Shown here piece after piece: positions 18,395 through 64,000 of a DNA stretch of 64,000 nt. Made by a program: the position numbers and the translations under genes. Position 1 is the first letter of the stretch. Every line of letters starts with the position of its first letter. This stretch comes from Patescibacteria group bacterium (GTDB lineage Bacteria > Patescibacteriota > Gracilibacteria > UBA4473), in the NCBI GenBank assembly GCA_965660445.1, contig CBFIAK010000001.1:1-64000 (forward strand), read 5' to 3'. The notes under the pieces were generated by a model. That model searched no databases, was not told the DNA's origin, and saw only the letters and a list, made by a program, of their open reading frames with translations.

Positions 18395-19714
18395 ATGCAT
18401 GATATCTTAACGTGGTCACACATAATTCCGTTTCTTATATTTGGAATATCGTTTTTATGTATTGTTTTTGAGCCTTTTGATAAATCGATTATTGCCCTAT
18501 CGGGAGCGATTGCCATGGTGCTTACTGGAATTTTAACAGCCACACAAGCTATTGAAGCTATTGAATTTGAAACAATTTTACTACTCTTGGGAATGATGAT
18601 GCTGGTGCATATGGCATCAAAAAGTGGTGTGCTTTCGTGGCTGAACGTTCAGATTATTACTTTCACAAAAGGAAACCCATTACTTATATTTCTCTTATTT
18701 TCGGGAGCAACGGCTGTTTTTTCTGCAGTGTTGGATAACGTAACAACTGTGATTCTTATGGTTCCTCTTATTATTCAACTTCTCAAAAGTATAGGAAAAG
18801 ATCCTAAACTCTATATATTTGCTATTATTCTCTTTTCTAATATTGGAGGTGGATTAACCCTTATCGGAGATCCTCCCAATATTATCATTGGAGGGGCTAT
18901 GGATTTCAGTTTTCTTGATTTTATACAAAACCTTTGGATTCCTATAACAAGTGTCGCCATTATAATTGGAGGCTATTTTCTCATCCGTTTTCGAAAACGG
19001 TTTCAATCGATAACGCATAGTCTTACTGATCTCCATCTTACTTTTCTGCTTATTGAAAAAATAAAACAAACATTCCTCTCTCAAACTTTTCATAAACTAT
19101 TTGTCATTCAGGTTCTTTTTATATTATCACTCACAATCACAGGGTTTTTACTCCAAGAATACTGGCACATACCGGCCTTTGTATTTGCTTTTGCAGGAGC
19201 GATATCACTTGCGATTATATCTCGGAAACACATTGATATACACGAATCATTTCGATCGGTTGAATGGTCAACTCTTTTCTTTTTTGCGGGTCTTTTTATT
19301 ATAGTCCGTGGTATTGAAAGCACTGGTGCTCTAGAATGGCTAAGTCAGTACATTGTCTCAAGCACGCAAAACATCCTCTATTTATCACTTCTTATTTTGT
19401 GGGTTTCAGGGCTTATTTCTATGGTTTTAGATAACATTCCTTTTGTGGCGGTTATGATTCCTGTTCTTTTAGGTATTCAAAGCAGCCTCGGAGACGTAAA
19501 TACTGATATACTTTGGTGGTCTTTGTCATTAGGAGCCTGCTTAGGCGGAAATGGAACACTTATTGGAGCTTCCGCAAACATCGTTTCGGCAAACATTGCA
19601 CGAAAAAACGATATTCATATCGGGTTTCTTGAATACACAAAATTTAGTTTTCCTTTGACCATTGCCATGCTTGCCATTTGCAGTCTCTCTATTTATTTCA
19701 CTTTATCACTATGA
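18395..19714 (+). CDS. ArsB/NhaD (IT superfamily) transporter
   Basis: LDNVTTV, SNIGGGLTLIGDPPN, LDNIPFV, LGGNGTLIGASAN; many TMs. Confidence 0.9.
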   Translation: MHDILTWSHIIPFLIFGISFLCIVFEPFDKSIIALSGAIAMVLTGILTATQAIEAIEFETILLLLGMMMLVHMASKSGVLSWLNVQIITFTKGNPLLIFLLFSGATAVFSAVLDNVTTVILMVPLIIQLLKSIGKDPKLYIFAIILFSNIGGGLTLIGDPPNIIIGGAMDFSFLDFIQNLWIPITSVAIIIGGYFLIRFRKRFQSITHSLTDLHLTFLLIEKIKQTFLSQTFHKLFVIQVLFILSLTITGFLLQEYWHIPAFVFAFAGAISLAIISRKHIDIHESFRSVEWSTLFFFAGLFIIVRGIESTGALEWLSQYIVSSTQNILYLSLLILWVSGLISMVLDNIPFVAVMIPVLLGIQSSLGDVNTDILWWSLSLGACLGGNGTLIGASANIVSANIARKNDIHIGFLEYTKFSFPLTIAMLAICSLSIYFTLSL

Positions 19715-55544: not shown

Positions 55545-56206
55545 ATCACAGATTTTCAATTCTTCGTTCGGTATTAGAACTCATCACGCTGATTGCTTTT
55601 TTTTATTTAGTGGTTCATTTAAATGGGCATGCCATACTGCTCTTGCTTGATCATGGACACGCAGATCATCACCACATAACCGAGACCGTATCTATTGTGT
55701 CTCATTGGGAAGAATGGGCATGGGGCATTGGAATAAGTCTTCTTTTTATTGGTATATGGCAAAAAACACCATTACGACACCTTATACCGTGTCAGCATGA
55801 ACATTGTCACACAGAAAAACCACTCTCCCATTTACTCGCCATTGGAGCTTTGTGTTTGCATTTTTTCCCGGAAGCAGGAATTCGATATTCATTACTCGAA
55901 ACATTCTCGTTTCAATGGGAATCAGTATTAGTACTCGTAGGGTTTATATCACACATACTGGTTGATATTCTCATTACATTTCATTTAGCGTCTTATTGGA
56001 ACACACTTCCAAAACGCATACTCTGTGTTCTCTTTATTGGAAGCATTTGGGGAGTCGCATTCTTTGCGCATAACTGGATAGACGTTATTTTTTCTCATAC
56101 AACAGAGGGGTTGTTTCTTTTAATAAGCGGGTTTATACTGTCGATGTTTCTTCATCTTCCTCATAAACCAAAATCATGTGTGGTTTGTGAATCGCAACCA
56201 TCATAA
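55541..56206 (+). CDS. His-rich membrane protein, divergent ZIP-like metal transporter
   Basis: DHGHADHHH, CQHEHCH, LHFFPEAG (cf. ZIP HNxPEG), several TMs. Confidence 0.55.
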   Translation: MNHRFSILRSVLELITLIAFFYLVVHLNGHAILLLLDHGHADHHHITETVSIVSHWEEWAWGIGISLLFIGIWQKTPLRHLIPCQHEHCHTEKPLSHLLAIGALCLHFFPEAGIRYSLLETFSFQWESVLVLVGFISHILVDILITFHLASYWNTLPKRILCVLFIGSIWGVAFFAHNWIDVIFSHTTEGLFLLISGFILSMFLHLPHKPKSCVVCESQPS

Positions 56207-57969
56207 TGGAACAAAAAACCGCTTTACGCATACTCAAAACCGGAGAAAACGTTTTTTTAACAGGTGCAGCAGGAACAGGAAAAACGTATGTATTGCATCA
56301 ATTTATAAAATGGCTCTACACACATCGCATATCAGTGGCTATTACGGCTTCCACTGGAATTGCCAGTTCTCATATTGCTGGGCAAACGATTCATAGTTGG
56401 AGTGGTATTGGTATTCGAGAAACACTCACTCGCAAAGACTGTGATACGATTGCTCGTAAAAAAGTGGTACGTGAACGAATTGAGTCGACTCATGTTTTGA
56501 TCATTGATGAGATGTCGATGATTTCTCGCCAAACACTTGAGGCTCTTGATGAACTGTTTCGGTTTATACGGTTATCAAACGCACCGTTTGGTGGTATGCA
56601 AGTGGTGGTATGTGGAGACTTTTTTCAGCTTCCACCAGTAAGCAAAACCCCTATACCCAACACACAAAAATTTGCGTTTATGTCTCCTTTATGGGGGCAA
56701 GCAAGGTTTCAGGTGTGTTACTTAAAAGACCAGTTTCGACAAAACGAAGACGATCTCGCTGGGTTTTTGGACGAAATTCGGTCAGGAGAAGTATCAGATA
56801 GTCGTATCAATCAGCTCCAAGAGTGTATTGAACGCACGCAAGAAGAAACTCCGGAACAAACCTATACGAAACTCTATACACATAACATTGATGTGGATAC
56901 ATTAAACGAAAAAGAACTAAACGCGCTGCCCTCTCCGGGATATGAGTTTGTAGGCATGGGATCAGGTGACAAATCGGGCATAGAAATACTAATGAAATCA
57001 GTATTAGTACCGCACCGTATGGTATTAAAAAAAGGAGCTCCTGTTATGTTTATTAAAAATAATCCAAAAGTGGGATACCACAATGGAACACTTGGCACCA
57101 TTACTGATTTTACATCAGAAGGGTTTCCCGTGGTCACGACACGAGACGATCGAGATATTTATGTAACACAGGAAGAATGGAGTATTCGTGATCGGTACGG
57201 AACACCTCAATCAACGTATAGCCATATTCCATTACGCCTCGCATGGGCTATTACCGTACATAAAAGCCAAGGGATGACACTTGATGAAGCAGAAATGGAT
57301 TTATCAAAGACGTTTGAAACAGGGCAAGGATATGTCGCGTTATCGAGAGTACGCAATTGGAGAGGATTAAGACTTCTCGGATGTAATAGCACAGCATTAC
57401 AGATTGATCCACTTGTATTACAAGCCGATAAACGGTTTCAAGAACTCTCACAAGACGGAGAACAAAACATACTCAATACCGATTCATCATTGATTGAAAA
57501 ACGTATTGAAGACAGACGTTTATCACAAGAAAATTCTATGAAAGAAGAAGAAATGCCTTTGTTTCTCTCTGAAAAAAAGAAAGTAAAAATAAAGAAGAGT
57601 GTAGTCAAACCAGAACCTCAAAAAAAAGTATCAACCTATAGTGTGACCAAATCGTTATTACTCGAGAAAAAGCCAATTGAGTCTATTATGGAAGCACGAG
57701 GAATGAATTATGATACGATTATCAAACACATTGAACATTTAGTCATAGAAACACCTGATTTAGATATCGATTATTTACGTCCTGAAAAAAAAGACATGGC
57801 AAAAATGACGATGGGGTTCATACAAGCAGAACAGAAAGCAACCGCTGAAGACCGTGATAAAGACGGACATGTAAAACTCAAACTTGTTTTTGAGACTCTT
57901 AATGAGTCTTATTTCTATAACGATTTAAAAATCGCACGACTTTTTTTATTAGACCGCACAAAAAACTAA
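56206..57969 (+). CDS. PIF1-family SF1B helicase with a C-terminal HTH
   Basis: GAAGTGKT, TIHSWSG, DEMSM, GDFFQLPPV, AWAITVHKSQG, GQGYVALSR. Confidence 0.92.
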   Translation: MEQKTALRILKTGENVFLTGAAGTGKTYVLHQFIKWLYTHRISVAITASTGIASSHIAGQTIHSWSGIGIRETLTRKDCDTIARKKVVRERIESTHVLIIDEMSMISRQTLEALDELFRFIRLSNAPFGGMQVVVCGDFFQLPPVSKTPIPNTQKFAFMSPLWGQARFQVCYLKDQFRQNEDDLAGFLDEIRSGEVSDSRINQLQECIERTQEETPEQTYTKLYTHNIDVDTLNEKELNALPSPGYEFVGMGSGDKSGIEILMKSVLVPHRMVLKKGAPVMFIKNNPKVGYHNGTLGTITDFTSEGFPVVTTRDDRDIYVTQEEWSIRDRYGTPQSTYSHIPLRLAWAITVHKSQGMTLDEAEMDLSKTFETGQGYVALSRVRNWRGLRLLGCNSTALQIDPLVLQADKRFQELSQDGEQNILNTDSSLIEKRIEDRRLSQENSMKEEEMPLFLSEKKKVKIKKSVVKPEPQKKVSTYSVTKSLLLEKKPIESIMEARGMNYDTIIKHIEHLVIETPDLDIDYLRPEKKDMAKMTMGFIQAEQKATAEDRDKDGHVKLKLVFETLNESYFYNDLKIARLFLLDRTKN

Positions 57970-58458: not shown

Positions 58459-59328
58459 ATGACCATTCCTCCAGAAGTGATGACACAGATTAAAAAAGCT
58501 CAACAAGGAGAAATGACTGAGTATTATATCTACACAGCGTTATCGCAGAGAGTTTCCCATACACACAACCGAGACATTTTAACCCGCATTGCTGAACAAG
58601 AAAAATCACACAGTGAGTTTTGGGCACAATACACAGGCACACAAGCCACACCAAACGCATGGAAAGTATGGTGGTTTACAACTATTGCTCGTTTATTTGG
58701 GCTTACGTTTGGATTAAGACTTATGGAAAAAGGCGAAGTACATGCACAAAGCATGTACGCATCAATTATCGAGTATGTACCTGAAGGCAAATCTATACTT
58801 GAAGACGAAAAACAACACGAACAAGAACTCATCGAATTACTCCATGAAAAAAAACTCGATTACATGGGTTCGGTTGTTTTAGGACTTAACGATGCGTTGG
58901 TAGAACTAACAGGCGCACTAGCAGGATTATCGTTTGCGTTTCAGAACACACATCTTATTGCTGTCACAGGGCTCATTACAGGTGTAGCAGCATCGTTTTC
59001 GATGGCAGCATCTGAATATTTATCAAATAAAGCAGATGGGAACAAAGATGCTCATATATCGGCTTTGTATACAGGGTTAGCCTATATTGGAACGGTTCTC
59101 TTTTTAGTCACTCCATTTTTCGTATTCACGCATTACGCAGTTGCTTTGGGAGTTTCGCTCAGTATATCAATTTTGATTATTTTCTTTTTCAATTTTTACC
59201 TCTCTATTGCACGAAACACAGAGTTTTGGAAACGTTTTTTTGAGATGGCGGGTATTAGTCTTGGTGTATCAGCTCTGAGTTTTGGTATTGGTATTTTTGT
59301 ACGATTTTATTTTGGGATTGAGGTATAG
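58459..59328 (+). CDS. Rubrerythrin-like + VIT1/CCC1 transporter family protein
   Basis: EKSH/EKQHE diiron motifs; VLGLNDALVE, SMAASEYLS. Confidence 0.9.
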   Translation: MTIPPEVMTQIKKAQQGEMTEYYIYTALSQRVSHTHNRDILTRIAEQEKSHSEFWAQYTGTQATPNAWKVWWFTTIARLFGLTFGLRLMEKGEVHAQSMYASIIEYVPEGKSILEDEKQHEQELIELLHEKKLDYMGSVVLGLNDALVELTGALAGLSFAFQNTHLIAVTGLITGVAASFSMAASEYLSNKADGNKDAHISALYTGLAYIGTVLFLVTPFFVFTHYAVALGVSLSISILIIFFFNFYLSIARNTEFWKRFFEMAGISLGVSALSFGIGIFVRFYFGIEV

Positions 59329-59418
59329 CAAACACCAACCGTGTCCCGATATATCGAGAAACAGTATCCCTCCTTTTCATTGCCTCGTTTCACTCGTTAT
59401 TCAAAGCACATTCAACTG

Positions 59419-59507
59419 TGGCGGGCAGAATATGTCTCCTACCCTTTATAGCTATTATTTAATATTTCAATGAGACAAACAAGACACTATAAAAAAGGGT
59501 GTCTCAA
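59419..59507. repeat. Site A: first copy of a bipartite imperfect direct repeat (putative recombination site)
   Basis: TGGCGGGCAG (59419-28), then TGTCTC, then AATGAGACAAACAAGACACTATAAAAAAGGGTGTCTCAA (59469-59507). Confidence 0.8.
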
Positions 59508-59509
59508 AA

Positions 59510-62212
59510 TTAAAGATTATTTTTTGCCTTAATTAGCGCGATATCTTTATTATTATTTCTTGTTTTCAAAGAATCTAGGATCTTTTGACCTGCCTCTGGA
59601 GTCCAATATATTTTTAGGTTTTCTCTAGCTCGTGTAATAGCTGTATAAAAAATATTATGAGTAATCAACTCTTCTGTTTCGGCCGTGATTACAATCTTAA
59701 CCGAATTATATTCCAACCCTTGTGCTTTATGGATTGAAACTGCATAAGCTACCTGAAAAGGAATTATTGTGTCCAAAGAGTCATCATCTTCATCAGTACT
59801 TTTATACTTGTTAACAACAAAACGAATCACAGAGGTGTCATCAGATTCACTATCAAGAAGTTCAAGATCATACCTAGACGCTTCAAATCCATTGATAACT
59901 TTTCCAATTTCAATATCAAATTGTATTTGATCTTCAGAGCTATTTATATCGATGATTCTACCTTTTAAGTTATTATAAATTAAAGGCGAAAATCGTTCTG
60001 CCTCGTTAAACAAAATAGGATCATTGACCTTATAGGTTTGGATTCCCCATCTCACTGTTTTGTTTTTGTTATTATTTTGTAAAAACCTATTAATATTATT
60101 TATTCCATAAAGCCCATCATAATTTAAACAAAGAATAATTTCATCGTTTTGTGTATAATCAAAAATTGACTCATCAAGCCTTGCTGAATATTGGTTTCTT
60201 GTTATATGCTCAACAATATCATCATCAATATTTCGAACTTTATCCCAAAGATCAAGTAAGTTTTTATTTGTTGTTCGGTAAGGCTTCGTTAGTTCAAAAA
60301 CTGAATGATCTCGTATAAATGGTCTAATTACACTAAACCAATTTCCGAATAGAATTGATTCAATTTGGAATATGTCACCAACTAAAACTATAGATAAAAA
60401 AGAAACTTTCTCTAATATTTTTTGCATATCAGTATTACTAACAGTACTGCATTCATCAATAAAGAGTAGATCGAACTCACTATCTTGATTACTTCGAGAC
60501 AAGAACTTGGATATAGTTTGAAATTTGCAATTAGAGGCTTGAACTTTTCTTCTCAAATTATCTACAGCAGGGTTTGTGTTTGCTAGATAAAGTTTTCGTT
60601 CATCATTAAAAAAATGTGATATGTGATTTATCAGAGTTGATTTGCCAGTTCCTGCCGCACCATAAATTAGAGCTACTTTGGAGCTTTCAAACATTTGTTC
60701 AATAAACGATTTTTTTTGATCGCAATCAATATCGTAATCAGAAAAATTCAACCAAGCACTAACCGATTTCGAATAGTCTTTAAAGCCTGTTAATGAAAGA
60801 TCCTTTAATTCATTAATAATATATAATACATCTTTTTCATACCCCCTCATATAAATATGATTCTTATAGCTATCAAGTTTTCGATTTCCGTGAGTAAAAT
60901 AAAGTGAATTATTATAAGTTTGAATAAGATCATCAACATTCTCAAAATGATCTAACTCTTCTTGTGGAGTGTATAAATATCCATTAACTTCTGTGTTATT
61001 TTTCACAAATCTTGCGAGTATTTCGTGCTCTCTACCAGTTGAATCAATGCAATCAAACAAATCTGAAATTTTAGGATTATGGTTTTTTAGAGACGTATTA
61101 AATGGCATTTCATCAAAAGGAATACAACCATATTCAAGTTTTAAATCTGATAACTTTATACAAGATGTTCCTGTATACTGCTTTTTTATAATCTGGTTAT
61201 TTAACCGATAGAGCAAATAAGCAATAATATTATGACCTGCTTTTTTATTTTTAATTAAACCTCGACATTCGTCTAAAATACTCAAAAAATGTATAGTTTT
61301 AACTCTTGTTTTTAATGCATCCTGAAAATCTTTATAATTATCATCAGGAAGATTCATAATTTCAGGAACACTAAGACCAGACCTCTTAAGAAGAGACATT
61401 AGTTCTCGTGATTCTGGAGAGTTTCCTCTCATTTTAAGTTCACTTCCAAATATTTTGGCAAAATTATTGAGCTCACATGGCCTAATTGAGATCTCCCAAT
61501 CATCAATAATTTGAATCGGCATCTGTTTATTCAAAACACTTATATAATCATTACTAATTGAAAGTTTAACGGCATAATTTTTGGAAACATCAAATCGTGT
61601 AAATGCAATAATTCTATCAAATTTACTTATGTTATTACTTGCTCGAGTAAAAGTTACCTCATAATAAACTTCATATTGAACAAAAAAGGGTTTTATCTTT
61701 TGAATATAGTATCTGTCACCTGTGGATGATTTAGATCTTCTTGATGCTGGCTGTTTAATTTTGTCAACGATCTTTTCATAATACTCACTAAGTGCTGGAT
61801 CTGTATTTATGGGGAAATCACGAATATTACTAAGAACATCAAGTCCATACTGTCTTTTGAGAAAAGATCTTATTTTCAATAGGTATTCATAGTACTTCAA
61901 AATTAATCTTTCAGAGTTTTCTTCATCAAGGGTGTAATGAGAAGCTGAGATTTTTAACAAGCTATGAAATTTTTTTAAGAACTTCAACTTTCCCATTCGG
62001 CCTACAAAAGCATTAGCTTCCTCAATATTTTCGTAATTAATTTTTATATCATCCCCATTACTGAAAATCTTCAATGAGATATGTTCAACAAAATTCCTAA
62101 GCTGGGAAAGCATATTTTGAGAGAGAATACCCCTTTCTGTAACGTCAAATTTATCAATATTAGCACAAAGAAGTTTATCGATATCTAAGATGGCTTTATC
62201 TATTTTTTGCAT
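59510..62212 (-). CDS. SF1 (RecD-like) ATP-dependent helicase with a large unknown N-terminal region; candidate defence cargo
   Basis: GAAGTGKS, DECS, VGDIFQI, YR, YAVSIHKAQGLE, YTAITRAR. Confidence 0.85.
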   Translation of the reverse strand: MQKIDKAILDIDKLLCANIDKFDVTERGILSQNMLSQLRNFVEHISLKIFSNGDDIKINYENIEEANAFVGRMGKLKFLKKFHSLLKISASHYTLDEENSERLILKYYEYLLKIRSFLKRQYGLDVLSNIRDFPINTDPALSEYYEKIVDKIKQPASRRSKSSTGDRYYIQKIKPFFVQYEVYYEVTFTRASNNISKFDRIIAFTRFDVSKNYAVKLSISNDYISVLNKQMPIQIIDDWEISIRPCELNNFAKIFGSELKMRGNSPESRELMSLLKRSGLSVPEIMNLPDDNYKDFQDALKTRVKTIHFLSILDECRGLIKNKKAGHNIIAYLLYRLNNQIIKKQYTGTSCIKLSDLKLEYGCIPFDEMPFNTSLKNHNPKISDLFDCIDSTGREHEILARFVKNNTEVNGYLYTPQEELDHFENVDDLIQTYNNSLYFTHGNRKLDSYKNHIYMRGYEKDVLYIINELKDLSLTGFKDYSKSVSAWLNFSDYDIDCDQKKSFIEQMFESSKVALIYGAAGTGKSTLINHISHFFNDERKLYLANTNPAVDNLRRKVQASNCKFQTISKFLSRSNQDSEFDLLFIDECSTVSNTDMQKILEKVSFLSIVLVGDIFQIESILFGNWFSVIRPFIRDHSVFELTKPYRTTNKNLLDLWDKVRNIDDDIVEHITRNQYSARLDESIFDYTQNDEIILCLNYDGLYGINNINRFLQNNNKNKTVRWGIQTYKVNDPILFNEAERFSPLIYNNLKGRIIDINSSEDQIQFDIEIGKVINGFEASRYDLELLDSESDDTSVIRFVVNKYKSTDEDDDSLDTIIPFQVAYAVSIHKAQGLEYNSVKIVITAETEELITHNIFYTAITRARENLKIYWTPEAGQKILDSLKTRNNNKDIALIKAKNNL

Positions 62213-62308
62213 TCAAAAATAATTGAAGAAAATAATACTCTTATACTACTTTTTTGAAAAATATTGAATAGGATTCTTTATCCAAAAAAGGCAAAAGGGT
62301 CAATAAAC

Positions 62309-62603
62309 TGTAACATTATAGTCTTTAATTCCACTGCCCTTACTGATCTCTCCACCATAGTGACCAACCTTCCAACCCTTTCGACGACTCTAAGGGTTTA
62401 AACAGGTCTTAACAAGCAAAAATCATAATGTACCACTCCCTAGGAAGTAGATCACTATGACGTATTAGTGAATTGTATGGCGGGCAGGAACGGTCTCATG
62501 TCTTATCTGTCATTATCATTAGCCTTTTTTGTATATCTTTTTATCAAAATGAGACAAATGAGACACTATAAAAAAGGGGTGTCTCAATTTTCATAATGTT
62601 ACA
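62309..62603 (+). ncRNA. Candidate structured ncRNA or ssDNA element upstream of the recombinase
   Basis: 11-bp terminal inverted repeat enclosing five nested stems plus GAGAC/GTCTC hairpins (see findings); folded by eye only. Confidence 0.45.
62478..62587. repeat. Site B: second copy of the bipartite repeat
   Basis: TGGCGGGCAG (62478-87), then GGTCTCAT, then AATGAGACAAATGAGACACTATAAAAAAGGGGTGTCTCAA (62548-87). The core differs from site A by 2 substitutions and 1 indel. Confidence 0.8.
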
Positions 62604-62698
62604 AATGTTACACCGTAGAAGGGGCATTAAATAAGGAAAAAAATCCTAGACTTCAAAATCCATTGCGTCATCAATTGAATACAAATTTTATTCAACAA

Positions 62699-63937
62699 AT
62701 GAATAAGTTAGTACCAGAAGTGAAATACTGCATCTATGCGAGGAAGTCGAGTGAATCGGATGAGAAACAAGCCCTATCGATTGGATCACAGATAACCGAA
62801 ATGCAACGGCTGGCAGAAAAAGAAGGACTCAAGGTCGTTGAGAGCATCCAAGAGAGCAAATCTGCCAAAGACTCGGGGCAAAGAGCAGGATTTACACAGC
62901 TTCTCGCAGGGCTTGAGGAAGAGCGGTTCAATGCCATTCTCACATGGGCACCAGATCGGCTGAGTAGAAATGCGGGAGACCTTGGGAAACTGGTAGATCT
63001 AATGGATCAGAAGGTGCTTGTGAAGATTCAGACAAGCGGACAGGCATTCACAAACACTCCTGATGAAAAATTCCTGCTCATGATCCTGTGTTCTCAAGCC
63101 AAGTTAGAAAACGATAACAGGTCAAAGAATGTGAAACGAGGACAACGAACACGGTGCGAAATGGGAACTAGTCCTGGACCCGTGCCACTTGGATATAAAC
63201 TCATCCGAGGACAAAAATACGGAGAAGCGAGTAAGATTTTAATCGATACGGAACAAGCCCCATTCGTTAAAAAAGCATTCGAATATATCGCTTATGAGAA
63301 CTTAAGTGGACGACAGGTAAAAGAATATCTGGAAGATGAAGGATTCCGTAATAAACAAGGGAAAGTCATTGGATATAGTCGAATTTTCAAAATCATTAAA
63401 GAACCGTTTTACTACGGTGAGTTTGATTATGGAGGAATCCGATACAAAGGAACTCATAAACCGATAATCACAAAAGAACTCTTTGATGCTGTTCAAGACA
63501 AACTGCAAAAATATGCGGTTCGAGAAAAATGGGGACGAAAAGATTTTTACTTCAATCGGATTCTGAAATGTGCTGAGTGTGGATCAGGTGTCAGTGGAAC
63601 AGAACACACAAACAGACATGGAACCAAATACATCTACTACAAATGCAACAAATATGGCGGAACAAAAAAATGTAGTTGCAAATACATTCGAGAAGAAAAA
63701 CTTTTTGAAGAAGTGGCAAAAATCATTGTCGACGTAAAAGAAGAACATCTTCGAATGAATCGACGAATCAAAGAAGACTTAATAATGATAAATCGGCATC
63801 ACAGAGAAAAACCAATAACAATCCAAGAGCATTTAATCTCCATACTCAAGGATGGAACGAAAAAAGAGAAATCTGATATTTTGAGGAGTTTTAAAGAGAA
63901 ATTATTATTGAAAGATGGGAAAATAGTATTGTTTTAA
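62699..63937 (+). CDS. Large serine recombinase (resolvase + recombinase + Zn ribbon) with a truncated coiled coil
   Basis: YARKSSE catalytic Ser, DRLSRN, PLGY, PFYYG, HKPIITKELF, CAECG...YYKC...KC. Start placed at ATG 62699. Confidence 0.93.
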   Translation: MNKLVPEVKYCIYARKSSESDEKQALSIGSQITEMQRLAEKEGLKVVESIQESKSAKDSGQRAGFTQLLAGLEEERFNAILTWAPDRLSRNAGDLGKLVDLMDQKVLVKIQTSGQAFTNTPDEKFLLMILCSQAKLENDNRSKNVKRGQRTRCEMGTSPGPVPLGYKLIRGQKYGEASKILIDTEQAPFVKKAFEYIAYENLSGRQVKEYLEDEGFRNKQGKVIGYSRIFKIIKEPFYYGEFDYGGIRYKGTHKPIITKELFDAVQDKLQKYAVREKWGRKDFYFNRILKCAECGSGVSGTEHTNRHGTKYIYYKCNKYGGTKKCSCKYIREEKLFEEVAKIIVDVKEEHLRMNRRIKEDLIMINRHHREKPITIQEHLISILKDGTKKEKSDILRSFKEKLLLKDGKIVLF

Positions 63938-63984
63938 CGTCAGGAATATACGAAGTTTTGCGACTGAAAGGAGTAAAATTTGGG

Positions 63985-64000
63985 TGAAGCCTGCAAGGAT
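63985..64000 (-). tRNA. Possible 3' end of tRNA-Ala (or tmRNA), cut by the window edge
   Basis: Minus strand reads ATC-CTTGC-AGGCTTC-A: end of a T loop, 3' T-stem strand, acceptor strand with U70, and A73. Only 16 nt are visible. Confidence 0.3.

Follow-up and report, generated by a model that had tools for sequence, protein, structure and literature searches.

A stretch of 64,000 nucleotides from a Patescibacteria genome (contig C1; hereafter the window) carries a helicase gene between two similar blocks of sequence, sites A (59419-59507) and B (62478-62587), with a serine recombinase gene beyond the second. What are these sites? An earlier note on this DNA, made from the letters alone, proposed that each site plus gene may be an excisable or stackable cassette, reminiscent of an integron cassette and handled by the adjacent serine recombinase, and it named plain attL/attR scars or remnants of tandem insertions as simpler alternatives. 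The simpler alternatives are what the anatomy displays: as read from the sequence, each of the two sites is the left end of a tRNA-anchored island and not an attC-like folded site. We consider it likely that the two islands, E1 and E2, are integrative elements that adjoin tRNA-Ser(GGA) at its 3' end in head-to-tail order and are moved by a large serine recombinase (LSR), with E1 having no recombinase of its own (Table 1).

Site anatomy and the tRNA-Ser genes

Sequence inspection, a repeat finder and alignment agree that the same motifs stand in the same order on both sides of the helicase gene, as the earlier note had described. Common to A and B are TGGCGGGCAG, GTCTC, a length-variable spacer and a 40-nt core, and the repeat finder reported D1 (31 nt at 94%), D10 (20 nt) and D14 (17 nt) at the two sites. 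A 31-nt core pattern matched the window twice against 0.00 expected from 100 shuffles, whereas TGGCGGGCAG alone was weaker, with 2 matches against 0.72 expected and at least 2 in 16 of 100 shuffles. The spacing of 52 nt in A and 72 nt in B was confirmed when measured from TGGCGG to TGAGAC, as was the helicase stop codon (59510-59512, minus strand) 2 nt off site A. The upstream stem that GGGCAG was said to close in both copies (59380-59389 at site A) was not borne out, the DNA left of A being a tRNA-flank copy, that left of B an island right end, and the two being unrelated.

The flank of site A aligned with C1:465471-465569, which lies directly after tRNA-Ser(GCT) (465564-465653), at 96.3% identity over 82 nt and 91.9% over 99 nt, and the identity stopped inside TGGCGG. 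On their right sides, A and B have the same left arm. The sequence to the left of B has its homologue beside tRNA-Ser(GGA) (C1:66403-66493, minus strand), again on the left; this gene is 2.4 kb past the window and is abutted by the right end of E2. This right-end alignment had a local score of 30, compared with 17.0 +/- 2.2 in 500 shuffles, none of which reached 30. TGGCGG was common to all four places, namely A, B, the tRNA-Ser(GGA) junction and the tRNA-Ser(GCT) locus, and the boundary between host and island sequence lies at this hexamer, 50-70 nt left of the core. As in a tRNA-anchored island, an intact tRNA-Ser(GGA) stands at one end and TGGCGG is repeated at A and B, the repeat being just 6 nt.

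Serine-integrase att sites are short and imperfectly palindromic with a 2-bp crossover, and attL and attR are hybrids of attP and attB. Set against this scheme, the hybrid attL/attR logic holds, the dyad symmetry of the arms is weak by eye, and the shared core has 6 nt. Site A, which joins a host tRNA flank to an island left end, would be attL; site B, joining the right end of E1 to the left end of E2, would be attP-like; and the right end of E2 at the tRNA would be attR. One observation counts against the main reading: the trailer left of A matches that of tRNA-Ser(GCT), not tRNA-Ser(GGA) at the other end.

In six of six islands, the left-end hexamer is the 3'-terminal hexamer of the neighbouring tRNA. 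These are TGGCGG with tRNA-Ser (in this genome, G369 and G285), TGGCTG with tRNA-Gln (G222), TGGTAC with tRNA-Arg (G027) and TGGCAG with tRNA-Trp at site C of this genome, where the tRNA is 22.8 kb away and has a right-end-like flank. The left-arm block TGG(C/T)NG-N7-GGGTCTnnTACCCTTT is conserved in 31 of 37 copies. The left arm was also considered as a specific mimic of its cognate tRNA, and this was rejected: the similarity is generic, site A agreeing at 10 of 20 positions outside the hexamer against a median of 9 for other tRNAs. Among relatives, right-end-type flanks adjoin tRNA-Ser(GGA) in 4 of 11, and plain terminators were found in G007 and G010. No orthologous empty site was found by way of the VIT1-like gene, the loci of 11 relatives having no tRNA downstream and so no usable synteny; a query with the tRNA plus its upstream gene matched just the tRNA, the flanks of which were still informative.

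It is extremely unlikely that the left junction is an assembly artefact, in which the join of the VIT1-like gene's downstream region to site A, through a 55-nt exact two-copy repeat (59370-59424), would be a mis-join with the tRNA-Ser(GCT) locus. Logan unitigs do break exactly at 59343-59424 and 62546-62588, and the repeat nodes have roughly double depth (39 and 42, compared with 17-19). However, the trailer copies differ at three positions left of the exact repeat, by which ordinary reads could presumably phase them, a swapped join would still be of the attL type (trailer, TGGCGG, left arm), and the same architecture occurs in many independent assemblies.

Table 1. Features of islands E1 and E2 and their flank in the window (strand: +, -, or. 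where none is assigned)
Positions	Strand	Feature	Remarks
59329..59418	-	Host-type flank: copy of tRNA-Ser(GCT) 3' trailer and terminator hairpin	Putative B-side arm of attL
59419..59424	.	TGGCGG, reverse complement of tRNA-Ser 3' end CCGCCA	Common to A, B and tRNA; presumed crossover region; from four-way comparison of A, B, tRNA-Ser(GGA) junction and tRNA-Ser(GCT) locus
59419..59447	+	Left arm of island E1, TGGCGGGCAG..GTCTCCTACCCTTT	Putative P-type half-site; weak generic T-arm resemblance
59448..59468	.	AT-rich variable spacer, site A	
59469..59507	+	Core module, site A: TGAGAC-AAA-(c)AAGAC-AC-TATAAAAAAGGG with inverted arm GTGTCTC	
59510..62212	-	Sole gene of E1; 900-aa SF1 helicase-type protein, PADLOC candidate defence family PDC-S53	
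62280..62477	+	Right end of E1, motifs ACTGCCCTTA, CGACGACTnTnAGG, CACTATG, ATTAGTGnnTTGTA	Aligns with DNA beside tRNA-Ser(GGA), C1:66230-66402, and beside tRNA-Ser in G369 and G285
62478..62507	+	TGGCGG core and left arm of island E2	With 62280-62477, putative attP-like junction
62508..62547	.	Variable spacer, site B	From alignment
62548..62587	+	Core module, site B	43/43 identical to site C, C1:668595-668637
62596..62624	+	Second module, built alike around a different word: TGTTAC-AAA-TGTTAC-AC-CGTAGAAGGGG	Read from sequence
62675..62695	.	Palindrome TTGAATA-N7-TATTCAA, operator-like	Just ahead of rec1 start codon; read from sequence
62699..63937	+	LSR gene rec1, first gene of E2	E2 continues past the window to C1:66402

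The conserved core module

Within this CPR class, 34 of 401 genomes, belonging to 26 of 229 genera, contain the core module, with no match for a reversed-pattern control; its distribution is patchy and its copies are nearly identical. An order-level scan added nothing, the order comprising the same 43 genomes as the family. In this genome (991 kb), three core copies are present, of which two precede LSR genes by about 115 nt, and there are four LSR-like genes in total. In the 31 aligned copies, the spacer ahead of the core is about 5 to 105 nt long, and the second module with the TGTTAC word also follows the core in loci L005, L012 and L013.

The sites are like integron attC sites in their conserved ends and variable middle, and the units in holding single genes and in stacking. 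If they were integron-like cassettes, the sites would be folded, attC-like single-stranded sites, and the LSR would recombine the 40-nt palindromic cores. The ordered conserved ends around a length-variable middle, the one gene between two sites with a recombinase adjoining, and a single-gene unit between two left arms in G222 fit this idea. The folding, however, does not: no consensus structure was obtained on either strand for the 31 aligned copies (alifold -0.11 and 0.0), and single-strand folding of A and B was not above shuffles (z -0.16 to -1.84). The palindrome is optional, its arm GTGTCTC being present in just 17 of 37 copies from other genomes and missing from 20, and serine recombinases work on double-stranded sites. 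Unlike in integrons, no IntI-type tyrosine recombinase was found at the sites, the linked enzyme being an LSR, and the junction lies at a tRNA end. We regard this explanation as very unlikely, and neither the comparison with attC nor the choice of the 40-nt core as the recombination site in the earlier note is upheld, host and island sequence joining at TGGCGG, outside the core.

The 40-nt core is thus apparently not the crossover site, and it looks regulatory. Of 37 copies, 13 have a -10-like hexamer 16 nt from TTGTCT on the minus strand and four have one at 17 nt, compared with zero to three copies at any other offset from 8 to 29. At site B, TTGTCT, 16 nt and TATACA form a weak outward promoter-like arrangement on this strand, TATACA being a poor -10; no -10-like box was found at site A. 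A sigma-70 promoter scan of the region was uninformative (18 sites against 19.1 in shuffles, no excess). The stretch GACACTATA resembles promoters of phage single-subunit RNA polymerases, and no phage-type polymerase of this kind was seen in the elements. An RNA gene or tRNA-like gene at the sites was considered and rejected, as ARAGORN returned nothing for the window, Rfam gave no match at gathering score across the whole window and only chance-level miRNA matches at the two sites (E 0.18 and 0.21), and no consensus fold exists. A structured-looking stretch upstream of the recombinase gene in G104 had no Rfam match either. A role of the core as an outward promoter or in regulator binding is one that we infer and do not read from the anatomy.

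A further explanation, which we find quite unlikely, takes A and B as a shared regulatory unit (promoter, operator or terminator) or a small RNA gene and not as junctions, the helicase gene merely lying between them. It would fit the minus-strand promoter-like features in 17 of 37 cores, the position of the core 76-192 nt upstream of recombinase genes in seven loci, and the full identity of the B and C cores beside recombinases that are 47% identical, which suggests constraint beyond recombinase binding. Yet it leaves unexplained why the hexamer is that of the neighbouring tRNA in all six islands, why a tRNA trailer abuts A and why the right ends are homologous, and it finds neither an Rfam match nor a conserved fold.

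Recombinases, cargo and stacked islands

The domains of Rec1 are those of an LSR, in the order Resolvase (PF00239, 3.2e-22), Recombinase (PF07508, 3.6e-16) and Zn_ribbon_recom (PF13408, 1.3e-09), and its PDB matches include the A118 serine integrase (4kis, 2.6e-07) and the TP901-1 integrase (3bvp). Its translation contains ..CIYARKSSESDEKQ.., which would fit the N-terminal catalytic-serine motif Y-x-R-x-S. Palindromes TTGAACAA-N-TTGTTCAA, related to the one ahead of rec1, are present upstream of recombinase genes at site C and in L008, L014 and L018. Besides rec1, E2 contains three small genes, a tyrosine recombinase gene beside the tRNA and the putative attR (C1:65426-66244; Pfam Phage_integrase, 2e-43), and the right end.

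An LSR gene lies within 10 kb of the module in 12 of 22 loci, always to its right and co-oriented, and is directly adjacent in seven, with the module 76-192 nt upstream; the 10 of 22 loci in which no LSR was found within 10 kb count against the LSR reading. The LSR clades track the hexamer, two module-adjacent TGGCAG enzymes forming a 100/100 clade apart from six module-adjacent TGGCGG enzymes. These data support the view, already suggested in the earlier note, that the sites are recombination-type junctions tied to LSRs.

Another possibility, also unlikely, is that the islands are tRNA-anchored and stacked but are integrated by the tyrosine recombinase of E2, with TGGCGG as the overlap region, the TGAGAC repeats as arm-type sites, and the LSR as a passenger or the enzyme of another reaction. 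A six-base common core is a requirement of tyrosine recombinases, and such a shared core together with tandem arrays at a tRNA gene is a classical trait of tyrosine integrases. The Phage_integrase gene adjoins attR, and the direct repeats, one helical turn apart and 50-70 nt off the six-base core, resemble arm-type sites. Integration into tDNA is usually by tyrosine integrases, according to the Islander paper (PMC4383910). Homologues of this enzyme, however, occur in 2 of 22 module loci, compared with 12 of 22 for LSRs; in the 22.8-kb island of site C the genes at the module code for LSRs, and no tyrosine recombinase was found within 10 kb; and it is the LSR clades that track the hexamer.

On the preferred reading of LSR-moved islands, E1 (59419-62477) is a unit, as had been supposed for site plus helicase: both island ends are present, the helicase gene is the only gene, and a recombinase is absent. 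The helicase matches PDLC05035, the profile of PADLOC PDC-S53, over its full length (E=0, 1335.8 bits; residues 1-899 on profile positions 1-895 of 900), and the Pfam domains AAA_30, Viral_helicase1 and UvrD_C_2 lie within residues 498-874. PDC stands for 'phage defence candidate', and judging from the profile match the helicase is a probable anti-phage protein. Site A and the helicase gene recur in G104, which belongs to another family, at 80.6% identity over 2887 nt.

The junction of a right end, TGGCNG and a left arm, as at site B, is also present in G016, G004, G007 and G053. In G053, a 12-kb unit without an LSR is followed by an LSR unit, as is a unit without an LSR in the viral contig G401, and in G222 two left arms lie 1.1 kb apart with a single gene between them. 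E1 and E2 thus have the make-up of a composite island, that is, tandem units with att repeats, some without a recombinase, beside an LSR unit, and G053, G222 and G401 are similar. Arrays of different cargo beside homologous recombinases, which the earlier note proposed to look for, do recur as stacks in G053, G222, G016 and G401. Its idea of a stackable cassette stands with respect to stacking, recombinase-less units included, but not with respect to the site, the probable crossover region being TGGCGG and not the palindromic core. No circular attP form was found, both viral contig matches (2/2) being linear fragments. No A-B joint was present in the Logan contigs of the source sample (one run, assembled contigs only), a result that weighs neither for nor against excision. 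One low-depth Logan contig (5.5 compared with 17) skips 61621-62244, with 12 foreign letters and a shorter side of 21 letters; we take it to derive from another organism or a variant.

Proposed mechanism and relation to known systems

From left to right, the array would consist of the host-type tRNA trailer, TGGCGG and a left end (A, attL); the helicase gene and the right end of E1; TGGCGG and the left end of E2 (B); rec1, the other E2 genes and the right end; and TGGCGG of the tRNA (attR). The acting enzyme would most likely be the LSR, cutting inside or right beside the six bases common to every junction and the tRNA 3' end. E1 may be a recombinase-less derivative of a larger element that kept both ends and one defence-type helicase, and it could move only by rec1 acting in trans or within an E1+E2 circle. 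With the tRNA-side half-site as the main recognition target, the junction beside the tRNA would be usable after the first insertion, and stacking would follow. The core would be a conserved island-borne module, whose minus strand may give the -35 box and upstream region of an outward promoter across the att site and which probably also has regulator binding sites. Textbook large serine integrases recombine attP with attB only, and attL with attR when given a directionality factor. Under such strict site rules, it would be non-canonical to insert a second element at attR or to excise E1 by way of attL and the attP-like site.

A broader proposal, possible but doubtful, is that this CPR class runs a cassette-chromosome-like platform at tRNA 3' ends, in which a compact LSR reads mainly the tRNA-side half-site and each junction beside the tRNA thereby stays available for docking, recombinase-less units reduced to the two ends and one defence gene are stacked and moved in trans, and the TGAGAC module is an outward promoter/operator reading across the att site. 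If so, a neighbouring or circularised cassette, such as the E1 helicase gene from site B, would be expressed according to state.

Very little is known about gene exchange in the ultra-small bacteria of the CPR, and this island family turned up in no literature search on serine recombinases or genomic islands of CPR/Patescibacteria. The family is widespread, precisely bounded by a left-end module, a right end and a tRNA-end core, and tied to a compact LSR, with defence-type cargo, and single-gene passengers can ride in its stacks. An LSR able to dock at the 3' ends of tRNA genes even when the site is occupied would depart from the strict attP x attB rule of phage serine integrases and would offer a candidate tool whose landing sites occur naturally in every genome. 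With the end motifs, islands and their defence cargo can be delimited in CPR metagenome bins.

Rec1 has the same domain set as the phage LSRs of A118, TP901-1, Bxb1 and phiC31, with structure matches to the first two, and as in phages the integrase gene lies by the att site. Insertion at tRNA ends and tandem stacking are not textbook behaviour of phage LSRs, and participation of the module 50-130 nt away would be a further difference from phage LSR sites. Known phage LSRs use simple sites of <50 bp in which only the central dinucleotide need be shared (in part after PMC1470463).

SCC composite islands and tycheposons come closest among known systems. The staphylococcal and enterococcal cassette chromosomes (SCCmec, ECC) and SCC composites are moved by the LSRs CcrAB or CcrC. 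They dock at a single chromosomal site, the 3' end of a conserved gene, and every junction has direct att repeats; complex SCC elements have multiple attR, with composites including units without a recombinase, for example pseudo-SCC by ccr-bearing units (PMC6222049; 10.1101/336396; PMC5964201). The present islands, known from sequence anatomy, are alike in LSR, 3'-end docking site, att repeats and recombinase-less units. Unlike SCC, which targets rlmH, they target tRNA 3' ends (Ser, Trp, Gln and Arg); they have one recombinase of about 410-460 aa instead of a CcrA/CcrB pair, a 6-nt shared core instead of SCC repeats of about 50 nt with TATCATAA, an extra conserved TGAGAC module, and a CPR host.

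Tycheposons of Prochlorococcus lie at tRNA genes and are flanked by partial tRNA, later arrivals pushing earlier ones deeper into the island; PICI-like members with terS and members with cargo both occur, 27 of 937 have an LSR, and tandem-repeat junctions and excised subpopulations were detected by PCR, in marine plankton (10.1101/2020.12.28.424599). Most of them use tyrosine recombinases and duplicate a longer partial tRNA, whereas the islands described here are LSR-linked, share only the last 6 tRNA nt, have the module at their ends and belong to another phylum, the likeness drawn here being one of architecture.

Sites A and B and the junctions that they mark

Within the 991-kb genome (37% G+C) of which the window is part, the two repeats bracketing the helicase gene, sites A and B, were recovered from the sequence, by a repeat finder and by alignment, both with the motif order given in the earlier note: TGGCGGGCAG, GTCTC, an AT-rich spacer and a 40-nt core, AATGAGACAAA(CA/TG)AGACACTATAAAAAAGGG(G)TGTCTCAA. 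The distance from TGGCGG to TGAGAC is 52 nt in site A and 72 nt in site B, and the helicase stop codon lies 2 nt from site A, as that note had stated. A 31-nt core pattern matched twice in the window and never in 100 shuffles; the significance of the 10-mer motif alone, compared in the same manner, was weak. The core occurs exactly three times in the genome, and the third copy, site C, is identical to site B at 43/43 positions. A large serine recombinase gene, rec2, starts about 115 nt downstream of site C, as does rec1 at site B, and the two recombinases share 47% identity.

The DNA left of site A (82-99 nt, 96% / 92%) is a copy of the sequence directly after tRNA-Ser(GCT), and this trailer identity ends inside TGGCGG, the reverse complement of the tRNA 3' end CCGCCA. 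About 170 nt left of a second gene with the same 3' end, tRNA-Ser(GGA), are homologous to about 200 nt left of site B, with ACTGCCCTTA, CGACGACTnTnAGG and ATTAGTGnnTTGT as common motifs; the two right-end flanks gave a local alignment score of 30, compared to 17.0 ± 2.2 in 500 shuffles, 0/500 of which reached 30. Because of the trailer copy at site A and the homologous right ends at site B and tRNA-Ser(GGA), the four junctions sharing TGGCGG relate to one another like att sites, and they define two tandem islands, E1 and E2 (Table). Host and island sequences meet at TGGCGG instead of in the 40-nt core. Outside the hexamer, the left arm of site A agrees with its cognate tRNA at 10/20 positions, the median over all 36 tRNAs being 9; its likeness to a T-arm is generic, and a tRNA "mimic" is treated as a weak lead only. 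The tRNA-Ser trailer, 99 nt long with a terminator hairpin, is present twice, 406 kb apart, and left ends in two genomes of other families (G109 and G113) abut similar trailers, with ..ATTCAA(C/T)TG before TGGCGG.

Table. Features of the islands and their surroundings (C1, contig CBFIAK010000001.1; positions without prefix lie in the window)
Feature	Position	Strand	Description
Site A	59419-59507		trailer + TGGCGG + left arm; attL
Site B	62478-62587		right end + TGGCGG + left arm; attP-like
Site C	C1:668595-668637	minus	third core copy
tRNA-Ser(GCT)	C1:465564-465653		trailer + TGGCGG + tRNA; attB-like
tRNA-Ser(GGA)	C1:66403-66493	minus	right end + TGGCGG + tRNA; attR; 2.4 kb past the window
tRNA-Ser trailer, two copies	59327-59424; C1:465471-465569		
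Island E1	59419-62477		helicase as only cargo
Helicase gene	59510-62212	minus	900 aa; sole gene between sites A and B
Island E2	62478 to C1:66402		rec1, tyrosine recombinase and small genes, one of them of the isochorismatase family
rec1	62699-63937		large serine recombinase right of site B; Resolvase, Recombinase and zinc ribbon; matches A118 integrase structure
Single genes and tyrosine recombinase of E2	63940-64000 on to C1:66244 (L086:1-2345)	minus	two single genes (165 aa; 172 aa, isochorismatase-family) on this strand, then the tyrosine recombinase
tRNA-Trp/site C island	C1:645884-668660		22.8 kb
tRNA-Gln(TTG) mini-scar	C1:115675-115735		56 nt, directly after the tRNA
PIF1-like helicase gene	56206-57969		HTH_40 domain at the C terminus; 1.5 kb to the left of E1

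The conserved end module

At a threshold of ≤3 mismatches in 28 nt, the core was found in 11/43 genomes of the host's family and in 34/401 sampled genomes of its class, representing 26/229 genera and many families, and a reversed-pattern control gave 0. A core that is nearly invariant yet so patchily distributed is consistent with a mobile element and not with a host gene inherited vertically. The block TGG(C/T)NG-N7-GGGTCTnnTACCCTTT stands ≤140 nt upstream in 31/37 distinct core copies, with spacers of about 5-105 nt, so the ordered architecture first noticed at sites A and B is conserved.

The proposed likeness to integron attC sites, in contrast, was not borne out. The aligned copies yielded no consensus secondary structure on either strand, sites A and B folded as single strands no better than shuffles, the inverted arm GTGTCTC is absent from 20/37 copies and thus optional, and the junction lies at TGGCGG. 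No Rfam family matched at the sites or in the window. Within the core, the conserved part is a directly repeated word plus runs of A/T and of G, TGAGAC-AAA-TGAGAC-A(C/G)-TATAAAAA-GG. Sister modules that are built alike around other words adjoin it, a TGTTAC module following directly after site B, and TTGGAC, CCGAAC and TGGGAC/CGGAAC modules form arrays upstream of recombinases in three genomes (G285, G349 and G293). Each array (loci L059-L061) lies about 100-200 nt before the recombinase gene and has three to five modules of 33 nt. Every module has a repeated word of its own (TTGGAC, CCGAAC, TGAGAC, CGGAAC/TGGGAC), after which come TA(T/C) and runs of A/T and G; on the minus strand the arrays resemble a series of -35/-10 pairs with 16 nt spacing.

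Read on the minus strand, the first core word is TTGTCT, and it is followed by a -10-like hexamer at a distance of 16 nt in 13/37 copies and of 17 nt in 4/37, compared to 0-3 copies at each remaining offset from 8 to 29. This spacing is kept although the spacer sequences are unrelated between families, a pattern in favour of a sigma-70-type promoter facing outward in about half of the core copies. The putative -10 box is perfect at site C (TATAAT), weak at site B (TATACA) and absent at site A. Transcription from the predicted promoter of site B would cross the right end of E1 and enter the helicase gene, and the repeated core words may also bind a regulator. A general promoter scan of the region was uninformative.

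tRNA targets, stacking and a proposed mechanism

In 6/6 islands with a tRNA to the right in the expected orientation, the left arm opens with a hexamer equal to the 3' end of that tRNA: tRNA-Ser for TGGCGG (own genome, G369 and G285), tRNA-Gln for TGGCTG (G222), tRNA-Arg for TGGTAC (G027) and tRNA-Trp for TGGCAG (site C). The tRNA-Trp gene lies 22.8 kb from site C and has right-end motifs in its downstream flank. Recombinases beside TGGCAG ends form one clade (100/100), separate from those beside TGGCGG ends; as essentially a single contrast, this is only suggestive of recombinase clades following the hexamer. Next to tRNA-Ser(GGA), a right-end-type flank was found in 4/11 relatives, the copy in G021 being nearly identical to that of E2, and a plain terminator in G007 and G010.

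The tRNA-Trp/site C island encodes two serine recombinases, rec2 beside site C and rec3 behind a terminase-like gene. Its other genes are two of ParB/methyltransferase-like type, a small and a large terminase-like gene, one with HTH and one of 917 aa. The island may be a further stack, but no junction was found inside it. The mini-scar after tRNA-Gln(TTG), composed of GGTCTAGTAC, an inverted left-arm block and a second CAGCCA, resembles an island that has lost all but its two ends. Upstream of a recombinase in another genome (G104, locus L072, oriented 18500-18700) there is a long-range stem, GAGGGCAGTT ... AACTGCCCTC, with the right-end motif ACTGCCC inside and no Rfam match in this stretch.

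The idea of stackable cassettes held as far as stacking is concerned, without the attC-like folded site. In G053, a left end is followed by a recombinase-less 12-kb unit (Fic/HTH, RecQ-like and other genes), a right plus left end and a recombinase unit, and the IMG/VR contig G401 carries a recombinase-less unit with a truncated terminase gene and then a complete unit with recombinase. One gene lies between two left arms 1.1 kb apart in G222, two left arms are separated by 226 nt in G376, and attP-like junctions occur in G016, G004 and G007. In all three stacks that could be judged (own genome, G053 and G401), the unit encoding the recombinase is more distant from the outer left end than its partner and lies on the known or expected tRNA side, an order that fits later arrivals docking beside the tRNA.

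The suggested link to a serine recombinase was likewise supported. Among twenty-two loci of 20 kb, a rec1-family recombinase was present within 10 kb in 12 (13 genes), always right of the module and co-oriented, directly behind it in 7 loci and at the far end in the remaining recombinase-bearing loci; tyrosine recombinase homologues were found in 2/22. We propose that a large serine recombinase acts on an island attP, composed of right end, TGGCNG and left arm, and on the 3' end of a tRNA gene whose last six bases occur in that attP. Joining the two would leave the tRNA intact. As targets differ from site to site on their trailer side, recognition probably rests on the tRNA side; this would admit a second island at an occupied site, creating the attP-like junction at site B. 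E1 would be mobile solely with rec1 in trans or within a joint circle.

Several points count against this mechanism. Sharing a core of just 6 nt is typical of tyrosine recombinases, one of which E2 itself encodes, and serine integrases of the textbook kind are not known to take attR or attP-like sites as partners. Moreover, 10/22 loci have no recombinase within 10 kb, and the trailer at site A matches that of tRNA-Ser(GCT), not a known tRNA-Ser(GGA) trailer, although the island is anchored at tRNA-Ser(GGA). No recombination product was seen in the assembled contigs of the source sample, nor an orthologous empty site among the relatives' loci compared.

Related systems and cargo

In the cited parts of the literature, SCC/ECC cassette chromosomes and composite islands use serine recombinases and one docking site, with att repeats at each junction and recombinase-less units (PMC6222049; 10.1101/336396; PMC5964201), and tycheposons are described as tRNA-anchored, with PICI-like and cargo types, earlier elements pushed inward by later arrivals and a large serine recombinase in 27/937 (10.1101/2020.12.28.424599). 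On these descriptions they are the nearest systems to E1 and E2. The islands resemble such types but differ in the CPR host, the place of the target within the tRNA (its extreme end, with a 6-nt core), the single compact recombinase and the conserved end module. No published description of this island family was found in the literature searched, supplements aside.

Over its full length, the E1 helicase is a match (E=0) to PDC-S53, a candidate defence family in PADLOC, and its C-terminal half is an SF1 helicase. Site A and the helicase gene share 80.6% identity over 2887 nt (protein, 82.6%) with G104, from another family, where the helicase stands leftmost among the cargo of a larger element that extends to terminase-like genes and a rec1-like recombinase. 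Since no internal junction was found in the G104 element between helicase and recombinase, E1 looks like a shortened derivative of such a larger element with both ends kept. The PIF1-like helicase gene left of E1 has no visible link to the island. In E2, each of the two minus-strand single genes is followed by repeats with CTGCAAGG, and the tyrosine recombinase (272 aa; Phage_integrase, 2e-43) comes next.

Recombinases at the far end of a locus lie behind a set of genes that recurs: two methyltransferase-like ones together with small and large terminase-like ones. This set (HTH/small-terminase-like, 111-171 aa; large-terminase-like, ~500 aa) occurs in islands of 7-8 genomes (L056, L057, L062, L070, L071, L072, the site C locus OWN_C and G401), often followed by a serine recombinase; capsid genes were not noticed among them, and the set looks like a phage satellite. 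In recombinase-less loci, the cargo directly behind the module includes a DUF6119 gene (L066 in G376, 1.3e-29), a Fic/DOC gene with HTH (L055 in G053, 3.1e-17) and a GNAT acetyltransferase gene (L063 in G280).
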